From Phoronis australis (taxonomy: Eukaryota; Animalia; Phoronida), in assembly GCA_002633005.1 (NCBI GenBank), contig NMRA01000144.1, positions 608,248-672,247 on the forward strand: a stretch of DNA of 64,000 nucleotides. Reading direction: 5' to 3'. A program made the translations under genes and the position numbers. Of this stretch, positions 4,133 to 49,800 are shown one piece after another (positions within the stretch are counted from its first letter, which is position 1; each line of letters begins with the position of its first letter). The notes under the pieces are model-generated. The model did not search any database and was not told the origin of the DNA. It saw nothing but the letters and a program-made list of their open reading frames with translations.

Positions 4133-4297
4133 CAATGGCGTATTTAGGGGGTGGGGGGCAAGGGGGCCATGCCCCCCCTCTAAAATTCTCCCAGATTCCA
4201 TTTGGCAGTTCGGGGGTGCGAATGTCTGAGGGGAAAATTCCGGGCTAATACTCTGCCCTGCCCTTTCCCATAACTCAAAATTCTGGATCTGCCTCTG
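4133..4297 (-). mobile_element. MITE family A (CAG(G/T)GGCGGAT termini, 5-bp TSD), full-length copy
   Basis: Imperfect TIRs; AAAGA duplicated at 4128-4132 and 4298-4302; reverse-complement homologue of 27974-28135. Confidence 0.8.
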
Positions 4298-19600: not shown

Positions 19601-20347
19601 TTTTGGGCAGCACAGGTGAAGCTTTTTAGAGATTCTCACTACGTCCCTGACGACAAAATTATCAGCTGAAGTGCAGCATTGCTAATTAACCTCTGCCCGT
19701 CCATTGCATCTCTAGTTAAATATCAATAGCAATGCCCAGGTAGAATAAAACAAGATGCGATAGACTGACGTTGTCACCTTGGCAACCCAATGAGTCATAT
19801 CGTTGCACCACGACGGGCAATGCCCTGCTGCGTATGACAAGTGAGGCGCCCAGAATATTCTATTGACGGACAAACTTTTGTGACACACTCAATGCAAAAT
19901 ATATTGAATCGATCGAGTCAAAATGACATTGGTAACGCTGCGCTGACAATCAAAAATCATAAGCTTTGTAAATTCATTTGAGCCAGCGTGACAGGCGACA
20001 GGCCATCACGTCACCATTACGTGTGAAGAATTACCCAATGACAAGCACACTTTTCTTGGACGCGTGCCACACCATTACCTACTGTTTATCTTGGTTCGTG
20101 CTTCCCGCCATTTGGGTTCTGGCACTTATAGGTGTTGGGATTCCCCACAACACCGATGCACAAATGCGAAGAAGATTGAATGAAATGTGTAACATTATCA
20201 TAATTACGAAAAGAGAATTTATTGCGGATGTGAAATACACCAAAATAACACAACTTTACAACGAACACTTCTCCAAAACAAACCCAAATCGTGTCCTGAA
20301 AAGTTTCATCTAATCAGGGCATGTTGCCAGCGCATCGTCATCGCTAA

Positions 20348-20450
20348 CCAATCAAATAGCGTTACTGTGAAGATAACCTGTGACCTTTTAACCTAAATAA
20401 AAACCAAAACAAACCGCGATCGCTGGCAGTAAGTAAACGGGTTTCATTGT
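20348..20450 (+). promoter_or_regulatory. Candidate core promoter of the BH3-only gene
   Basis: CCAAT at 20348-20352, TATA-like TAAATAAAA from 20394, Inr-like CAGT (~20427) and TCATT (~20443), in a CpG-rich context ~300 bp upstream of the ATG. Confidence 0.4.
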
Positions 20451-20517
20451 GTAATGACACAACAGAAAGGAAACTGAGTGCGATAGCATCGCAAGCCAAG
20501 GTGAAGTCTGGTCATAC

Positions 20518-20670
20518 GTGAGTCGATCTGACTTAGTGGATCATAAACATTAGCGAGAAATACATATGTACTCGTTGCCACTTATACGGACGCTAGCCAT
20601 GTGACTCACGCTACGTGATGTATATTAGCAGTAGGCTCGTAGAACTAAATCAGTTTTTGGTCAGCTGCAG
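20518..20670 (+). other. Candidate 5' UTR intron of the BH3-only gene
   Basis: Donor-like AC|GTGAGT at 20518 and acceptor-like TTTTTGGTCAGCTGCAG ending at 20670. An alternative donor CA|GTAAGT lies at 20429, so the boundaries are uncertain. Confidence 0.3.
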
Positions 20671-20734
20671 ACGATCGTAAATCGATTACTACACTGGGTT
20701 CACGAGGGACTGGTACGCTTGCTTGCCCAAAGCG

Positions 20735-21196
20735 ATGGCACGCTCGACAAACACGTGCAATTCAAAGTCATGCACTAACGGAGTAAACGCCCGTGCAGAG
20801 TTTTCACCTGAGCAAGAGGACAATATTAAAGACGTTGATGACGCTAATAACAACGAGATACCTGGAAACATTGACTTAAACAACAACGAATATTTCATAT
20901 TGAACAACAACTTAATACAAGAGGGCAACCCTCTTAGGGAAATGGCGATCCACGAACAAGTAGGCTTAGAGGGTGCCGTCGGACCCGACCCGACGTGTAT
21001 ACAACAGGTTGCCGACCAGTTGCAACAGATTGGCGATCAGATGGAGGACGAACTCGTGGCCTCTCGAAGAAACCTTCCATCGTTAGACATTCTGAATGGA
21101 TTAAGATATTTCCTTTCGTCTCAGACAGACTCCTTAGTGCTAAGTGCCCACCTTATCCATTCAGTGATAGTTGTGGTTGTGCTCTTGAGACAGTGA
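20735..21196 (+). CDS. Putative BH3-only pro-apoptotic Bcl-2 family protein with C-terminal tail anchor (BIK/BID-like architecture), 153 aa
   Basis: Longest ORF in the window; first in-frame ATG at 20735 in good Kozak context (gcgATGg; the track's TTG start at 20723 is not used). Residues 89-107 IQQVADQLQQIGDQMEDEL fit the BH3 consensus (hydrophobic I89/V92, L96, I99, G100-D101, M103). Residues 134-151 LVLSAHLIHSVIVVVVLL followed by RQ-stop form a tail anchor. Orthology to a named vertebrate gene cannot be assigned by eye. Confidence 0.8.
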   Translation: MARSTNTCNSKSCTNGVNARAEFSPEQEDNIKDVDDANNNEIPGNIDLNNNEYFILNNNLIQEGNPLREMAIHEQVGLEGAVGPDPTCIQQVADQLQQIGDQMEDELVASRRNLPSLDILNGLRYFLSSQTDSLVLSAHLIHSVIVVVVLLRQ

Positions 21197-21249
21197 AAGG
21201 TAAGAATCTGTTAGATTTTGATTTAATTATTTTTGCTGCATGTTGTCTC

Positions 21250-21324
21250 CAGGGGCGGATCCAGGATTTTGAGTTAGGGGAGACCAGGGCAAAGTTGCCC
21301 CCCCACCCCCTAAATCCGCCACTG
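21250..21324 (+). mobile_element. MITE family A, internally deleted copy
   Basis: Same termini CAGGGGCGGATCCAGG / TAAATCCGCCACTG; flanks GTCTC / GGCTC (4/5 TSD match). Confidence 0.75.
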
Positions 21325-21662
21325 GGCTCAGACAACATGTCAAATCACAATAAAATCAGGGTATTGTTCCTCAAGATCCACTATTTAGCAAGTCATGACG
21401 TCAAATACAGTTATCCCAGTGCCCCGGTTTCAGGGTTAACGTTACATGATTAAATAGGGCATCAGATAAATGTTAGTGTATGTTATTTGAAAGGCCATGA
21501 AGGTCGGTCAAAGAAATCACTGGTAAACGGCACAATACACAGCCCTTTTCGGTGGCACCATCTGATTGGGGAAAATTGTAGTAAAACTGGAAAAGCAAAA
21601 CTAGTAATAAGATCCAGAAAAGTAAAGAACTAGTGTCCGTAGTTTTGCCAACATGTAACAAG

Positions 21663-21682
21663 TATCAAGCCCAGACTTGTCT
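21663..21682. promoter_or_regulatory. p53/p63/p73-type response element
   Basis: TATCAAGCCC-AGACTTGTCT: two RRRCWWGYYY decamers with zero spacer, both cores intact, second decamer perfect, 18/20 overall. A further degenerate half-site CAACATGTAA lies at 21649-21658. Confidence 0.5.
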
Positions 21683-21769
21683 TGGATAGTGAATGAAGCA
21701 TTGTTCTTTCTACAAACAAAACACTGTAGAATCGCGGCTACAATTGTATGCGTATAAGTGTATGTGTAA

Positions 21770-21797
21770 GTGTGTGTGTGTGTGTGTGCGCGCGCGC
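21770..21797. repeat. (TG)n(CG)n microsatellite
   Basis: Uninterrupted alternating purine-pyrimidine tract. Confidence 0.9.
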
Positions 21798-21898
21798 ACC
21801 CGCGCGCTCACCAGCGTGCGTTTACAAATAGCTTCAGTATATACGGTTACATGTTACAGTATAACGCGAGATTTTCCTGAAAGCTGTACCATATTTAA

Positions 21899-22236
21899 AG
21901 GGATATTAGTGGCGCGAAACGTGATTTTCTGGAACCACCCTCAATATGGAATCAAACATGCAACCCCGCGGTCATAGCCTAACGCTCTGTCGGTGAAGCT
22001 AAACCTTACTCGATGAACGGCAAAGTAATAAGCGTGTTTAACAAACTGATTGGTCACCGACCTTGATTTCAGCGAATGCCTGGCAGATAACGGCTAGAAT
22101 TTTCGATTTGTAATAAAACTACAAAACAGCGATTCTTGTTGTTTAACAGCTCTGGTCAAAGCTAATAACTTCAATAAGTCTATTCCAGCCAACGATAATC
22201 CCCTGCGTTTTTTGGCCGTAAAACCGATAATGTCCC
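21899..22236 (+). mobile_element. TTAA-flanked non-autonomous DNA transposon, family B (Kolobok/piggyBac-like)
   Basis: TTAA-AGGGATATTA ... TAATGTCCC-TTAA; the 3' part (CTCTGGTCAAAGCTAAT...GGCCGTAAAACCGAT) recurs at ~13050-13140 and ~70-172. Confidence 0.7.
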
Positions 22237-24331
22237 TTAAAATAAACTTTTTTATTTCAAAAGCTGAGCGAGGTGCGCCACTTCAGTTGTCAACTCCATC
22301 GATGGAGTCAACCCCAAATCAAGATAACGAGATTTGAAAACAATTCTGGCTGCGATCCATTTGCTGAAATGGTAAGCGAGTACGGGTGATAAGGGAACAC
22401 AAACAAACACTGCCTTTTGTTGTCAGACGTAGTTCCAGTGTCCTAAAAATAGATCCAGTCAGTTTGGAATAAACCACAAATCACCCCTCGCGGGCTCGTG
22501 TCGCGTCGTTACTACACCAAACGTCAGTCAATTGGGTCGTTGACTCATATTAGAAGATAAATTTTTATTGAAAGCACTTCGGCTCATTTTTGTTTACTAT
22601 TCATATGACTTTTTCAATCGTGATTCAACCATTCTACCAGGAAAAACTTGGCCCCGAATCAACATCGTGGCGCCAGTCGAAAATCTAGAATAATAGCACT
22701 GACAATTTCGTGAACAGTGTTATTTTTGTCATACGCCTATGTTGACAAAACTCAATAAGCTGTGATAGCGCCTTTACGACGTGTTGTATTCTAATGTTCG
22801 ATTTTGCACCATTCGGACGATCACCTCAGAGCCATAGATACGCGAATCGCCATCAATAACCAAAACAAACAACAGCTAGGGTCACTAAGAATTAAAAAAG
22901 CTTACAACACCATTTTGTGTGAAGTTATCCAGGCGTTGTATAGTAAACACTGTGTCGGTTGGTTGTGTGCTGGGTCAATAACTGTGTGTGTCGCGAACAA
23001 GTGGATTTGTTTTGACGCGTGCCTACACTTGTGTCGTTGTTAATTCGATATTAATTTACCACAGAGAATGCGTTTTTAAGAGGACAGGATTATTTTATTG
23101 CAACACATATCGGTGTTGTAACAAACAAAAAGGAAGCGCTGTTGAAGATACATGTTATTCTCTCCTGTTATTACGAAGTGTCACTTCTGGATTGAGTTTT
23201 CTAAATATACTTTCTTTCTGTTGCTCCTCAGCGTTCACAAACTACGTTTTATTTAATAACTTAAAAAGATTGTAAAATGAAAATTCCCAAATAATGAGTT
23301 CAATAGTCGTGGCTCAGTAAACGGATATTTATGTAAATCCCCGGAAAGATTTAGGAAAACCCCAAAAATCATACGAGATCAAACAGCAGTCATTCAAGGC
23401 GGGGACACGGGTCAAAACATGGAGATACGGCCATGACCCTTTATCAACTAATTTTAAAACGAACTTTCTTATCTATTTCTACACATTGCTTTATGGAATT
23501 CACGACTTAACACAGCCACGTTTATGGGACGCAGTGAAAGAATGTCTCACAGACAGGAATTATTTAATGAATCATAGGCTGATTAATGCAAAATTGTTAT
23601 TAATAGCATTCACACAGCGGCTATCATTAATACATAACTGCAGGCTTTAATCTACAAAGAACGAGGCACAAATATACATTTGCCATAAATAAAACAAAAT
23701 AAACAAGCGACAAATTTCAACACGCCGCAAAGAAGTTGTCGAGCCGTATGAATTCCCATGTGTAAGAAGTTCCTGGATAATGTTCAAGCAAGTGCTCTGT
23801 TAAATTTTATCTTCTCTGTGTCTTTTGTTTACAAGAGAGGGCTATTAAGATAATATGTGATTGACACGTGCCATTTATTCGCCGACCTGCTCAGACTCGA
23901 TCGAAGATTTCCAGGAGCTAAGTCCTTTTGCAGGTTTTCTCTTGCTTATCCAAATATTATCCGCAGGATATTAAATTGTGAGCCCTTTGTCAAGTGCTCA
24001 GACCCGGGGCTCAGACAGACGGCTAGTTTGTGCATTTCACTGAACAGGTTTTCATAAGCAGCCAGATCGATAGAAAATGATAACCAACAAAACTGTTGAT
24101 AGACTTTCGATCGCTAAACAACTGCATTAGATTATCGCTATGACTCACCATTATGCCTGTCGCAAGTATATACTCGAGGTATGGCTCCTTTTTCGTCACG
24201 TATCGAACGCAACAGTGATAGGACAGTCCAATATCACTTCTTACGCAAAACGTGCACCTCTTCATTTATTGCAATCTAAGAAGCATCGAAGGTTACGTAA
24301 CGCACAAGATTAAATTTGTGATTTGTCTTAT

Positions 24332-24522
24332 CGAATTAAAATTAAGCTTTTTGGTATACATTTTTAAATAAAAGCGTCCGACCTTTAGTCATGTGCCACC
24401 GTTAAGTTTATATTTAGTTGATTTGTGCTCTGAAAATCTTGAGCGAATTAAAATTAAGCTTTTGGTAAACATTTTTAAATAAAAGCGTCTGACCTTTAGT
24501 CATGTGCGACCGTTGAAGTTTA
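24332..24522 (+). repeat. Recent tandem duplication of ~78 bp
   Basis: CGAATTAAAATTAAGCTTTT...TAAAAGCGTC(C/T)GACCTTTAGTCATGTGC at ~24332-24410 and ~24444-24522. Confidence 0.85.
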
Positions 24523-25617
24523 AAAGCTTCAACAGTCGCACATAACTAAAGGAATGATTTCTCTAAAAAGGTATGGTACCGTCGAGAATCCCAAGCACCA
24601 GAAATCAAAACGAGGAATTTTGTTTCGGCCTGTGACACATAACGTCCTGAATCAAATTGTCCAACGACAAAACCGTTACGCAATTGCTTCACACATTCGC
24701 CAAACGTGGACTGGAGTCCCCAGAGGTCCAGACGGTGCCTGGTCATTGCGGTTTATCCAAGTAACTGACAATACACGTTTATATGGCAATCCTTACTTTG
24801 TGTATTCAAGCGAGGAAGAGGCAATTTAACGACTGAGGGGGCATAAATAAATGCTGACACTTGACACTACAGCATTTTTTTTTCTGGAAAAACACCACAT
24901 CACGGCCGACAATTCTACACGTATATGGTTGTTTGAGAAAAACTAGTCGCACATTTATGGTTAAATATAATGAATTGATAAGATTGTAAGGTGATTAACC
25001 CTGTATGTTGAATTAATGAACCAGTCGTTTAACAAGCAATGAAAAGATATCAGAAGACGAATTTTCAATCATTCTGATAAAGAGTCGGCCATTGTATAGT
25101 GTTTCGACAAGCACTCGTTAACTCTCCAAATAAGTAGACGCCCTATCCAAATTAATATACTGTAGACCATTATATAAAACTGCTCTTGTGATGGAAAACT
25201 AAATTCAACGGTAACATAACAACGCTAGACTTGAGGGTGACCGATTTGTTCTGTGAGAGAGCAATAAACGGCGCTCACGTGTTTTGGCATCAAATCTAGG
25301 TACGAAAAATAGACAAAAGCTTCAATAAAGCGTTGTTTAAACATACACTCACCTTTCTGCCCGAGGGTGAAATGTCTATCGATTGATCGTGTTTCAAGAT
25401 ATTTTGTACATTTGAACTTTGACGATTTAATTGGATTGTTTTATTTGAGCTAGACCTAACGTGAAACTTCATTGAATGGTGCACCTATTGCAAATCATGC
25501 TCCACCCAATCGCGTAAATATTGAGTATGAAATGCTCGGCTTTTTGATAGTTCAGGTGCGGATAAGGAGTTATTGAACTGAAAATATCACTGACCTCATT
25601 TCTATTTGTTATTTCAG

Positions 25618-27605
25618 ACTACAGAATACATGGGCCGCCACGTACATTAATTTTCATGGTGGTGCATCGCTGACCTGTATGCAGTAGGCCTACTACCTTT
25701 CAGCAATTCCATGGTGACAAGATCTCGTCTCAAGAATTGTCAGCGTGCTAGATGAACTGAAAGCATGTATTGGGTTCGGATCTCATCGGTAGGAGGAACG
25801 CGAGAGAGAAAACATCCGCATATGTCGCTAATACGTCATCAAACGCAATGCTAAACAGCTTTTCATCGGTACGGACAGGTGCGCGCTTTGATGCTACTCG
25901 CGACTGGCACAAAATTCGAAGAGACGTGGCATTCGCTGCGCTGCTAGGACGACATTCGAAGTGCCTGGAAAACGTGGATGATAGGATGATTCATTCTTTG
26001 GCACCGATTCAACAAGTCGTGTGGAAGACGTTAGGGGTATATCACTTGTCCAGCTTGGCGAGAAAACATGGACTTGTGTGTAAGAAATGATCTCATCTGT
26101 ACAGTTGATAGTCACTTGTTTATATTTGCGACCTTATTGGCTCAAGGCTAATTGTTTAGTTGAGGATCTCTTGTGAACTTTATTGACGAGATCTCACTCG
26201 ATTTGAGACTTTGTTGAATATGTTGGCGACCACGTGGTGGTGATTTATTAAATATTTGTAACACGTGTAAATAGAACAAATTTTTCTAAACTTTTTATTG
26301 TTTGATCTACCGATCCGAGGTATCTACCTTCGCTTTTTGCTCACTTGTAAACGTCCCTTTATCCGGTCAATATTTAGGCGGATTCTCTATCGACCAGTTA
26401 CTACCGACTAGTACGTTTTGTAATCTTCCACTGTATCTCCGGGCGCTAAAATCTAAGTGCGTAATAATGATTTTAGCACGCGGGACGATATTCTGCGCAG
26501 CAAACATTCGAGAACAACCTGGGCACAAAGTTGGCATTGAGCCAAAGTTTTTGTTCCAAACTTTCCGCCACGGGGTTTTTCACGGTTCAAGCGATGGGAT
26601 GTCAAAGGTCGCACGATTATGGCACGAGGCCAGGTGAAGCGACACGTGTTTATTGGGTGCCTGAGATGATTGACAACCCTTTGTTGGCATCGTTATATTG
26701 GGCGCTACAAGTGGGACTGAGCGATGATTTACCTCAAGCGGTAATTAAAATTTTCACAATGATCTCAAGAATGTACATAGTGTGGTTTAGTTAGATTATT
26801 TGTAAATATGTACTTACTTTTGTGCAGGTAACTGTGTTGGTCACCAAGTTACGCCAGTAACAAGAGATGTGCCATAACTGAGCAATTTCTCTCTTTAACA
26901 ACCCGTGCAATTGACGTGACATTTCCAGTTGAATTTGTTTTGGTTATGCAAGTGCAATGCGACATTAGATAGCTATCTGAATGTCAAATTCGAAACTTAG
27001 TGCCTCATACAATAGAGCCCAAAGACTGTCCTTGGTGACATACGCATGTACTTAACCAGTATTATCCATAAAAGTTGAAACGGCAAGTATTGATTTATGA
27101 CCAGTATTCTCCCCTCACTTAGTCAGGTGCTCAACACATAGTCAGTTTACAAATGTGGCTTTATCAGCATCACTTGAAAATCACATTGGGCAATTTTTAA
27201 AGTTGATTCAAGTTGGAACAATGTGTATACTGTCACCACTTTAAAACATTCTATTGGAACCAGTACTGTGTTGTTTATGTTTAATTTATTTTTCGTTTGT
27301 AAATATGTAATTCCTGTTATTGTTTTGTTATTATTATATTTAATAGTCAGGTGCTTGATTGACTGACAAACATTGATGTGTGCCATAGAACAAATTAAGT
27401 CAGGTAGCACACAAGAAATTGATGTTTATGGAGTATTAAACTTAAAGTCTCCCTTTGTTCAATTCCAAAATAGACATGGAATAGAAATGGGAAGTTTGTT
27501 GGTTTTTTTTGAAATTTGGAATTGTCATGTTGAATTCCTGCAAAATGGCAAATGAATCCTTGTTGTGCAAGAAATTGAAAATAAAATTGCTGTAAATGTA
27601 AATTT
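25618..27605 (+). other. Candidate terminal non-coding exon (3' UTR) of the BH3-only gene
   Basis: Starts at a strong acceptor; contains four Pumilio TGTAHATA elements (26266, 26772, 26801, 27298), U-rich tracts and conserved-miRNA seed matches on the + strand; AATAAA at 27580-27585. Confidence 0.5.
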
Positions 27606-27973: not shown

Positions 27974-28135
27974 CAGGGGCGGATCCAGGATTTTAAGTAA
28001 GGGAGGCCATGGCAGAGTATTAGCCAGGATTTTGCCCATCAGACATTCGCACCCCTGTAGTGCCAAATGAAATCTAGGATAATTTTAGGGGGGGGGGGCA
28101 TGGCCCCCTCCCCCCCCCCCTTAAATCCACCACTG
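27974..28135 (+). mobile_element. MITE family A, full-length copy
   Basis: CAGGGGCGGATCCAGG...TAAATCCACCACTG flanked by ACCCA direct repeats (27969-27973, 28136-28140). Confidence 0.85.
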
Positions 28136-46889: not shown

Positions 46890-49800
46890 GGTCACCTGAC
46901 ACAGTATAACAAAAGTATGACTGCTCAATCAGCTCCTTTATATATTAACCACCTGTGCATTAAATATGTGCTTACAACAGGTCCTCAGCTGAAGTAGCTA
47001 TTCATGTGTGTTCCTTTGTTGCACTCTAACAATCATATTCTTTTCAGTTGAATTAAAAAGATTAAATAAAATAAACCAATCATTACTGTAGGCTGACAAC
47101 AAGCAATAGCTGCTACAAGGTCACCTTCATCAAACAGCCAGCTTTTCCTTTGATGTTAACACCTGAGAAAACTTTCTGAGGGTTTGAAATGTATTTATCA
47201 CAAAATCCTGGCTTTACATAATTACTGAGGAAGTTACTGAAGCATTTCCTTCCGGTTTTGGTGAAAAGTTTATAAACAGAACGTCTCAAACTATAAAGAA
47301 CCTAGCATAGAAACTACTTTGATGCTGTTATCTTCAAAAAGGTTTGTTAAACCAGTACCACACAAGTAGGGACATGCTGTCCTGATAAGATGTCAGCAGA
47401 GGGTAATTTGATTACACAAGAGAGAAAAGGACAAGAGAAAAGAGATTGCACACACTCTTTAGCTATATCACTTAATTAACAGAGCAATGAACTTTTAACG
47501 GTCAATTGGCAAGGTCACATGCAACCAGACAAAACAAATGTTTTTGGTGAATGGATTCACCAATAACAGAAATTTGTCTTTGCTACAAATGTACATTGGA
47601 TAAGCACTCAACCTTTAATTAGCACGAGTGTAACATTTACTGAAGCTAATGATCTGTCACAGGACACAACACTCGTAATCTTCGTGAGTTTGGCAAACTT
47701 TTAACACCAACTCGTAAGCACAGGCGGATTTGGGGAGACCCTGAGCCCCTGCCCTCCCGGGCATAATCTAGAGGATGTCCAATTGGCATCCAACTGGAGA
47801 TCCTGGCTCAAATTTAGACATCCTAGTTGGGATGCTCTGATCAGTAAAGTAAGCAAGTAAGCATAGTAATGTCTCTTTAAACTTGCCAACCGAAGCAGCT
47901 CTGGAAGATAATTAGTCGGTCCTGAATAAAAAAGGTTGGTTTACAAATGATGTAAGTTACAAAAACCTTTAGTGCAGACCCATGTTGACACAGTAAAGTT
48001 ATCACACTATAACAGCAATTTGCCTTGGGTTCATAAAAACATTATTGGTCATGGACGCCCTGACAAATTGGATATCTAATTTGGAAGCCCTATCTTTTGA
48101 AATGCTTGACGAATCTCTGGTTGGGATGCTGTTTTAGGGGCTAGGGGGATTTTTTCCTTTGAAATTTCTGGCGTAGATCTGCCAGTGGTAAGCTTAAATT
48201 CCAGTCTTAAAATGACATTGCTATCCTGCAAAAAAGCCTGCTTGCTGCTATGTCAAATTCCATGCCAAATAGCAAAGTTTTGGGTGATGAATTTTAATGT
48301 ACATTTTACAGTTAGCCAACTATACTTAAATCAAAGTTTTAGTAATTATTATAATACAACTCTAAATTCATGATATCTGACAACATTAAAGGTTCAAAAT
48401 TTGTCAACATGCTAAATCGCCATCATGATCCGTAAAACCTATACCCAACAGAAGTGCACATTGGTGCAACTTGGCAGTCTGCAGCAATAATTCTTATTCC
48501 TCAATAACTTGAAATTAATTGGTTTTCTTAGAAATTACGGTTCATACCGGTGATTTTGAAACAAATTATAAGTTATGTTCAGTAAGCACTGACATAATGA
48601 TAGACTGATTTTGATTACTTACGTTATGCTACAACTTAATTGCGGATATTCTTGGCCTTATTAATTTTCCAGAAATTAGGGGTCGTGTCCCTCATTTTGC
48701 AACTAACAAGTTTTTCCAGTACGAAATCTTACATTGATCTGACACTTTTCGGTTCACCTACCACAAGAAATTGCACTTAAGTGAGAGGGTTCAACAGTAA
48801 TATTCTGGAAATATGAACTTTGCTATGTCAGCAGCAAATTTTTCAGTAATGACGTAATATTGTTAGAACATTGATTAGATTGCAAAGTAGCAGAAGTCTG
48901 TTTTGAGAAGAACAAAGTGATTACATCTTAGTAATGGGGAAAACGTGTTACGATCTGTATGAATAATTATTAGCTGAGCTTTCACATGACAGTCACCATT
49001 GATAAAAATAACAATGACAAACCTGAACACATGTATCCTGATTAGATGGTGCCTAGACATCAGACCATATGTTACAGACTAGATGAAAGCCCAGCTGACC
49101 AAAGGCTATTAAAAAGGCCCATACCATAATGCTTCTAATGGAAGCTCATGCATGAATGAATTTTAAGAAAACAGTGAAACAGCATCTTTCTTTTGCCAGG
49201 CATTCAAAGTAAATATGAGAAATGTGAAAAAAGCACAATATGCAACACCATATTCTATGAAAAATAGAAAAACAACAGCATTGCCACCTTCTTTCACATT
49301 TTTGCCTCAATCAGACAACTAGAAATTGTAAAATTATGACGTTTTACACTAGCATTAGTATCATAGTGCAACACTAACCAGACAAAATACCGTTTCCCCC
49401 ATCGTGACGACTAACTCTGGTAAAAACAAAAATTACTGGTAATAACTATTACGGCAATAAATTCTAATTACAGAACGGCTTACCCATTTTACCTGTCAAT
49501 TCTCCTTCATTCTCAGTGATGAGAAAAGACTACTCTGTTCAAGAATTTGCTCAGCCGTCATGACAGAGAATTCCGCATCATTGTATTTGACTACTTTCGG
49601 CTTGCACTGTAGTTGAATGAGTAGTATGTGTAGTACGGTAAAATCTCACAAATCTTGTAAAAAATAATTACCAAAATCACATTTTTAACTTTCAAAAGTT
49701 TCTAACATTGTAACATTGAGGGGTAAACCTGGAACATTTCAAAATATCGTCTGATGGTTTGGCTATGCTTTAGGTCTTGAAAATAATAAAGTTTTTTGAT

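Follow-up and report, generated by a model that had tools for sequence, protein, structure and literature searches.

The longest ATG-initiated open reading frame in the window (the whole 64-kb stretch of DNA analysed here) encodes a small, expressed protein that is very probably BH3-only and whose N-terminal region carries two D-x-NNN sites of the kind bound by SPRY-domain adaptors of the SPSB/Gustavus type. The frame runs from 20735 to 21196 on the + strand (153 aa). Membership of the BH3-only family and membership of the SPSB degron class are both assigned here from sequence features. That this probable BH3-only protein carries an SPSB degron is plausible and unproven, and we put the probability slightly short of even. 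If it is true, a known degron, a known type of substrate and a known ligase would meet in a new pairing.

The reading frame belongs to a real gene on the + strand, whose spliced transcript ends in a second exon of 3' UTR. Exon 1 (20440..21199 on the + strand, 5' end approximate) holds the 5' UTR and the entire coding sequence, and it was delimited by RNA depth, with the reads of the raw RNA runs setting in within the bin 20410-20444 (at about 20440) and ending at 21199. Three raw RNA runs with the same species label place 35, 16 and 163 reads on 20200-21240, and one assembled RNA contig covers 20473-21138. Over exon 1 the first mates lie exclusively on the - strand in all three runs, which in most stranded libraries corresponds to + strand RNA. 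The intron (21200..25617, + strand; 4,418 nt, GT..AG) is defined by split reads, 26 of which (5 in run X3 and 21 in run X4) depart at 21199 with loose ends that are identical to 25618-25647. It begins 3 nt past the stop codon, which by the usual 50-nt rule is too near for nonsense-mediated decay. Exon 2 (25618..27600, + strand, 3' end approximate) contributes about 2 kb of 3' UTR, and is supported by stranded depth over 25340-27340, by contigs that reach 27585 and by a single AATAAA at 27580. The 5' UTR (20440-20734) contains four upstream ATGs (20454, 20566, 20599 and 20618, opening frames of 7, 12, 1 and 20 codons), and RNA reads reveal a polymorphic 4-nt deletion in it, at 20717; these features could possibly damp translation of the gene. 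Two p53-like double half-sites, each with 2 mismatches, were seen in the intron (21656-21682, starting at 21656/21663, and 24020-24051), in a scan that carried no chance control, and they were given no weight.

The BH3 assignment is carried by a match to the 12-position consensus (hydrophobic-small-x-x-L-x-x-hydrophobic-G-D-x-hydrophobic) at residues 92-103 (21008..21043, + strand). This match lies within a predicted helix (residues 86-109) and is the sole one in the six frames of the window; when the protein was shuffled 200,000 times, 184 of the shuffled versions had such a match. A hydrophobic segment at residues 133-151 (21131..21187, + strand), with a mean hydropathy of 2.43 over 19 residues, is likely to be a tail anchor, and it also forms a helix (134-152) in a low-confidence single-sequence model that predicts two further helices, at 86-109 and 116-129. 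The same model gives coil over most of residues 17-85, including the motifs, at a mean pLDDT (41.6) that cannot separate disorder from failure of the model; the polar, acidic composition of residues 1-85 (net charge -10, 19% Asn) fits disorder. The coding sequence ends within exon 1 and has no BH1/BH2 Bcl-2 fold, as the definition of a BH3-only protein demands. In a Pfam search, BID was matched over residues 87-109 (23 residues) with E=0.034 and a score of 14.2 bits, where the cut-off is 25, and apart from that stretch no Bcl-2 family matched the protein at E up to 10. Nine of the ten best rows listed by the ESM Atlas are clusters of PXT1 (which has a BH3), BMF, BIK or BIM, with scores of 0.81-0.90, and the best unnamed cluster (0.83) is labelled BCL2 binding component 3; with a recognition value of 2240, under the 2300 mark, this is weak evidence, and the two Atlas searches count as one. 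Significant homology to a named BH3-only family was thus not found, the Pfam match being below cut-off and the Atlas look-alikes being leads only. Sequence searches of the PDB returned non-significant matches only, no better than one to an unrelated dehydratase subunit; a match to BAX, one of the non-significant ones, concerns BAX fused to GFP, and a large part of the aligned stretch lies upstream of the BAX helix. By its features (expression, a full BH3 consensus and a hydrophobic tail) the protein is BH3-only-like, in support of the preliminary description, which had taken it for a BH3-only protein. Tail-anchored members (BIK, BMF, BIM, PUMA and PXT1, and candidate echinoderm proteins in PMC8998228) are likewise small and predicted to be disordered, with one BH3 on one exon and a hydrophobic C-terminus; the protein studied here differs from them in having no alignable homology outside the BH3 and no Pfam family at cut-off.

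Searches for relatives came back blank at every level; the collections cover animals thinly, and a blank in them is no proof that relatives do not exist. A word-indexed protein search (index searched to 268 aa) yielded 18 candidates, none of them at E up to 0.01, and the same index gave none of three at E up to 10 for residues 30-125 and none of one among shorter proteins. With phmmer, 1.84 billion representatives of all lengths gave no hit at E up to 0.001, and an exact look-up found neither of two sequences in the protein collection. Metagenome contigs (0 of 201 stretches) and viral contigs (0 of 29) were equally blank. No neighbouring gene was recognised by Pfam in 427 of the 462 open frames of at least 45 aa (the 35 frames from 20-28 kb were left out), the closest approach being a weak, sub-cut-off match to Adipogenin (E=0.0007). 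The ratio of observed to expected CpG lies between 0.75 and 1.18 as far as 28 kb and between 0.11 and 0.60 from there on; directly after the 3' end of the gene it falls from roughly 1.0 to 0.11-0.17, and it then stays at 0.2-0.6 to 64000. The drop suggests a methylated gene body downstream, where no coding exon was recognised, and the mosaic pattern would be typical of invertebrate animals. A short interspersed repeat, probably a MITE-like element, occurs at 21250-21325, 27974-28135 and 4277-4297 (the same 21-mer at 21250 and 27974, and a weaker copy at 4277), and draws many partly matching RNA reads.

The translated frame contains, exactly where the preliminary description had placed them, three asparagine triplets on the + strand. 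Motif 1, DANNN, spans residues 36-40 (20840..20854; DANNNE, 36-41, 20840-20857), motif 2, DLNNN, spans residues 47-51 (20873..20887; DLNNNE, 47-52, 20873-20890), and run 3, ILNNNL, spans residues 55-60 (20897..20914). Their asparagines are encoded by AAT-AAC-AAC in motif 1 and by AAC-AAC-AAC in motif 2 and run 3. One of the three, DLNNN, satisfies the strict pattern [DE][IL]NNN and two satisfy D-x-NNN; ILNNNL fits neither. The published SPSB consensus is (E/D)(L/I)NNN, with each Asn required and Asp preferred at position 1 (PMC2923778; the motif is also defined in PMC12930380 and PMC8769072), and the canonical form is rare, occurring in 16 human and 11 mouse proteins (PMC2911665). The earlier claim that DLNNN is an exact instance of this canonical SPSB/Gustavus core is confirmed, and in Par-4 the E68D change from EL to DL, which produces a DLNNN core, raises SPSB2 affinity 15-fold (PMC2923778). 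DANNN had not been called a match, and it deserves more credit than that: among iNOS peptides tested on SPSB2, the Kd is 13.3 nM for DINNN, 23.5 nM for DANNN and 21,600 nM for AINNN, so that changing Asp to Ala at position 1 entails a loss of about 1,600-fold (PMC2911665, Table I). SPSB4 binding in REV-ERB-alpha has been mapped to LDSNNN (preprint 10.1101/2023.05.01.538963), a D-S-NNN core from which position 2 appears to be tolerant. By analogy with these peptides, motifs 1 and 2 are predicted to bind SPSB, whereas run 3, which lacks the first acid that matters so much in iNOS, would bind weakly or not at all. The array described as triple is therefore at best double.

DLNNN fits the degron shared by iNOS, Vasa and human Par-4 as targets of SPSB1/2/4 and Gustavus, and DANNN equals the core of a tested high-affinity iNOS variant; as in iNOS, the motifs are placed near the N-terminus, where disorder is predicted, and Par-4 is connected with apoptosis, as the present protein is likely to be. 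The substrates described in PMC2911665 and PMC2923778 have one site each, whereas two sites and a partial third run are found here within 25 residues, and the present substrate would be a BH3 protein anchored in a membrane. The flanks also differ, being acidic here and basic there. Changing three flanking iNOS residues together costs about 24-fold, with flanking Lys and Val contributing to binding (PMC2911665), and the affinity of the present sites may be lower, given acidic flanks unlike those of iNOS.

The two D-x-NNN sites exceed what composition predicts, and the excess is modest when the Asn runs themselves are presupposed. Shuffling the whole protein produced at least three NNN runs 9 times in 30,000, shuffling residues 26-66 did so 102 times in 30,000, and one strict [DE][IL]NNN arose in 194 and 1,342 of 30,000, respectively. 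At least two D-x-NNN sites were obtained, in 200,000 shuffles each, 30 times for residues 1-153, 124 times for 1-85, 866 times for 26-66 and 660 times for 34-62. Composition shuffles of this kind favour the motif unduly, since Asn tends to cluster in real proteins and the motif was picked after being seen. With the three NNN blocks held fixed, at least two of them have Asp at -2 in 1,352, 1,329 and 3,921 of 100,000 shuffles (1.3-3.9%), at least two have Asp/Glu there in 5,531, 8,498 and 15,953 of 100,000 (5.5-16%), and one canonical motif appears in 10.7-21.2%. At the DNA level, the pattern coding for D-x-NNN is seen three times in the window (twice in the reading frame) against 0.36 expected, and none of 100 shuffles reaches three, while Asn-triplet DNA as such shows no excess across the window (22 against 18.8 expected). 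The third D-x-NNN-coding stretch, at 49001-49015, lies outside any recognised gene and is probably due to chance.

A plain microsatellite origin of the NNN runs is unlikely. An AAC microsatellite was considered and rejected: the three Asn runs stand apart, each is exactly three residues long, their spacers differ and one of them contains an AAT codon. Tandem repeat calling returned nothing at the NNN region. No substitution or indel is listed for 20840-20914 in four runs, a comparison of low power given depths of 2.5-4 in X3, 7-10 in X2 and 27-31 in X4 and a single contig in X1. Across the entire coding sequence just two variants appeared: position 20776 carries a synonymous change, and Pro66Thr (20930) is present in the contig only. 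The preliminary description had named microsatellite-like variation as the behaviour that would speak against a degron, and in these low-depth variant data the NNN runs do not display it.

The reading that we prefer, to which we give somewhat less than an even chance, is that of a tail-anchored BH3-only trigger with two D-x-NNN sites, through which an SPSB-type adaptor and Cullin-5 would keep the protein low. Since a C-terminal anchor is predicted and an N-terminal hydrophobic segment is absent, the N-terminus should be cytosolic, with the tail holding the protein in an organelle membrane. As the peptide data suggest, a SPRY adaptor of the Gustavus/SPSB type could then bind either D-x-NNN site in the predicted disordered N-terminus and, as for iNOS, recruit ElonginBC-Cullin-5-Rbx2. 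Ubiquitin would be passed to Lys32 (20828..20830, + strand, four residues before motif 1) or to Lys11 (20765..20767, + strand), the sole lysines of the protein and both upstream of the motifs. Turnover might in this manner limit how much of the BH3 helix reaches pro-survival Bcl-2 proteins; loss of the ligase would release the protein. Two sites would provide redundancy or faster rebinding instead of true avidity, because in published structures the SPRY domain has one peptide site. A separate observation concerns DVDDA (residues 33-37, 20831-20845), a DxxD-small site that overlaps motif 1; a caspase cut after Asp36 would strip both lysines, break motif 1 and leave a lysine-free BH3 fragment. 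Effector caspases disfavour Asp at P2, and the site is for this reason only a lead.

Set against this reading is the view that the NNN triplets are incidental, part of an acidic, Asn-rich and fast-evolving spacer in a BH3-only trigger, whose peptides might bind an adaptor in vitro and have no cellular role. We regard it as a serious contender, with a sizeable minority of the probability. Residues 26-66 hold 12 Asn in 41 (29%), two acids at -2 come up in 5.5-16% of the fixed-block shuffles, and the absence of any relative among the 1.84 billion representatives would fit fast divergence. Over 18 nt, motif 1 is 78% identical to motif 2, and over 12 nt run 2 is 92% identical to run 3; local duplication of motif copies is thus possible and could have multiplied them in the absence of selection, and short similarity of this sort is also expected from shared codons. 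Conservation in known targets is uneven as well, PMC2911665 reporting that iNOS retains the motif in species as distant as human and goldfish, and that it is absent from mouse Par-4 and mammalian Vasa, which that paper takes as a sign that these are not key mammalian targets. What tells against an incidental origin is that shuffling seldom yields three Asn runs that are each exactly three long and differently spaced, and that the region shows neither a tandem repeat nor a listed length variant, in a window with no excess of Asn-triplet DNA.

The motifs could be functional SPRY sites with another reader, of the Fsn/FBXO45 type (Fsn being the FBXO45 orthologue), or with another outcome, SPSB localising or shielding the protein. 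We think this rather improbable, and it has precedents on its side: the DINNN of Vasa binds both Gustavus and Fsn (PMC4400588, citing Kugler 2010), REV-ERB-alpha was degraded faster when its SPSB4 site had been deleted (preprint 10.1101/2023.05.01.538963), and the present protein offers only two lysines. Ubiquitylation of iNOS by SPSB2 through the NNN motif in vitro (PMC2911665) and the placement of Lys32 so close to motif 1 nonetheless favour the conventional outcome. Very improbable, in our estimate, is a BNIP3-like membrane receptor for autophagy in place of a classical killer. Such a receptor would make use of the hydrophobic tail and of the one LIR-like sequence, EYFIL (residues 52-56, 20888-20902), between runs 2 and 3, but a LIR-like match is obtained in 27,848 of 50,000 shuffles, which is chance level, the BH3 matches the consensus in full, and the BNIP3 family is absent both from Pfam at E up to 10 and from the Atlas rows listed.

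The preferred reading, that of a BH3-only trigger kept low through SPSB and Cullin-5, has close parallels in vertebrates, where Cullin-5 degrades BIK through ASB11 (PMC6719446), NOXA through WSB2 (PMC12286604) and BIM through WSB2 (PMC12363959), as reviewed in PMC8867543. The logic of a SOCS-box adaptor on Cullin-5 is the same in these cases. The difference lies in the adaptor, which here would be a SPRY-domain SPSB that reads a linear motif directly, whereas WSB2 reaches BIM via Bcl-xL or Mcl1 as co-receptors (PMC12363959). The novelty claimed at the outset for BH3-only proteins is accordingly smaller than was supposed, Cullin-5/SOCS-box degradation of BIK, NOXA and BIM being known, and what would be new is the SPSB adaptor: a literature search with thin coverage of subscription papers turned up no BH3-only protein on which SPSB or Gustavus is reported to act. 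A more ambitious formulation, to which we subscribe only tentatively and with doubt, is that an invertebrate lineage equipped a tail-anchored BH3-only protein itself with a tandem SPSB/Gustavus degron, that the adaptor of Vasa and iNOS would also set the threshold of mitochondrial apoptosis, and that Cullin-5 control, attained in vertebrates via ASB11 and WSB2, would here have been arrived at independently.

The candidate echinoderm and cnidarian BH3-only proteins described in section 2.4 of PMC8998228 are few and need experimental confirmation, and the same section presents invertebrate BH3-only proteins as few and mostly unconfirmed; the gene analysed here adds to them a candidate that is expressed and for which no relative turned up in the searched collections. 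Should the degron work, the protein would be the first SPSB/Gustavus substrate among BH3-only proteins found in our searches. In that case it would also suggest that Cullin-5 control of death triggers has been reached more than once, and the threshold for cell death could be tied to the germline and immune roles of the adaptor.
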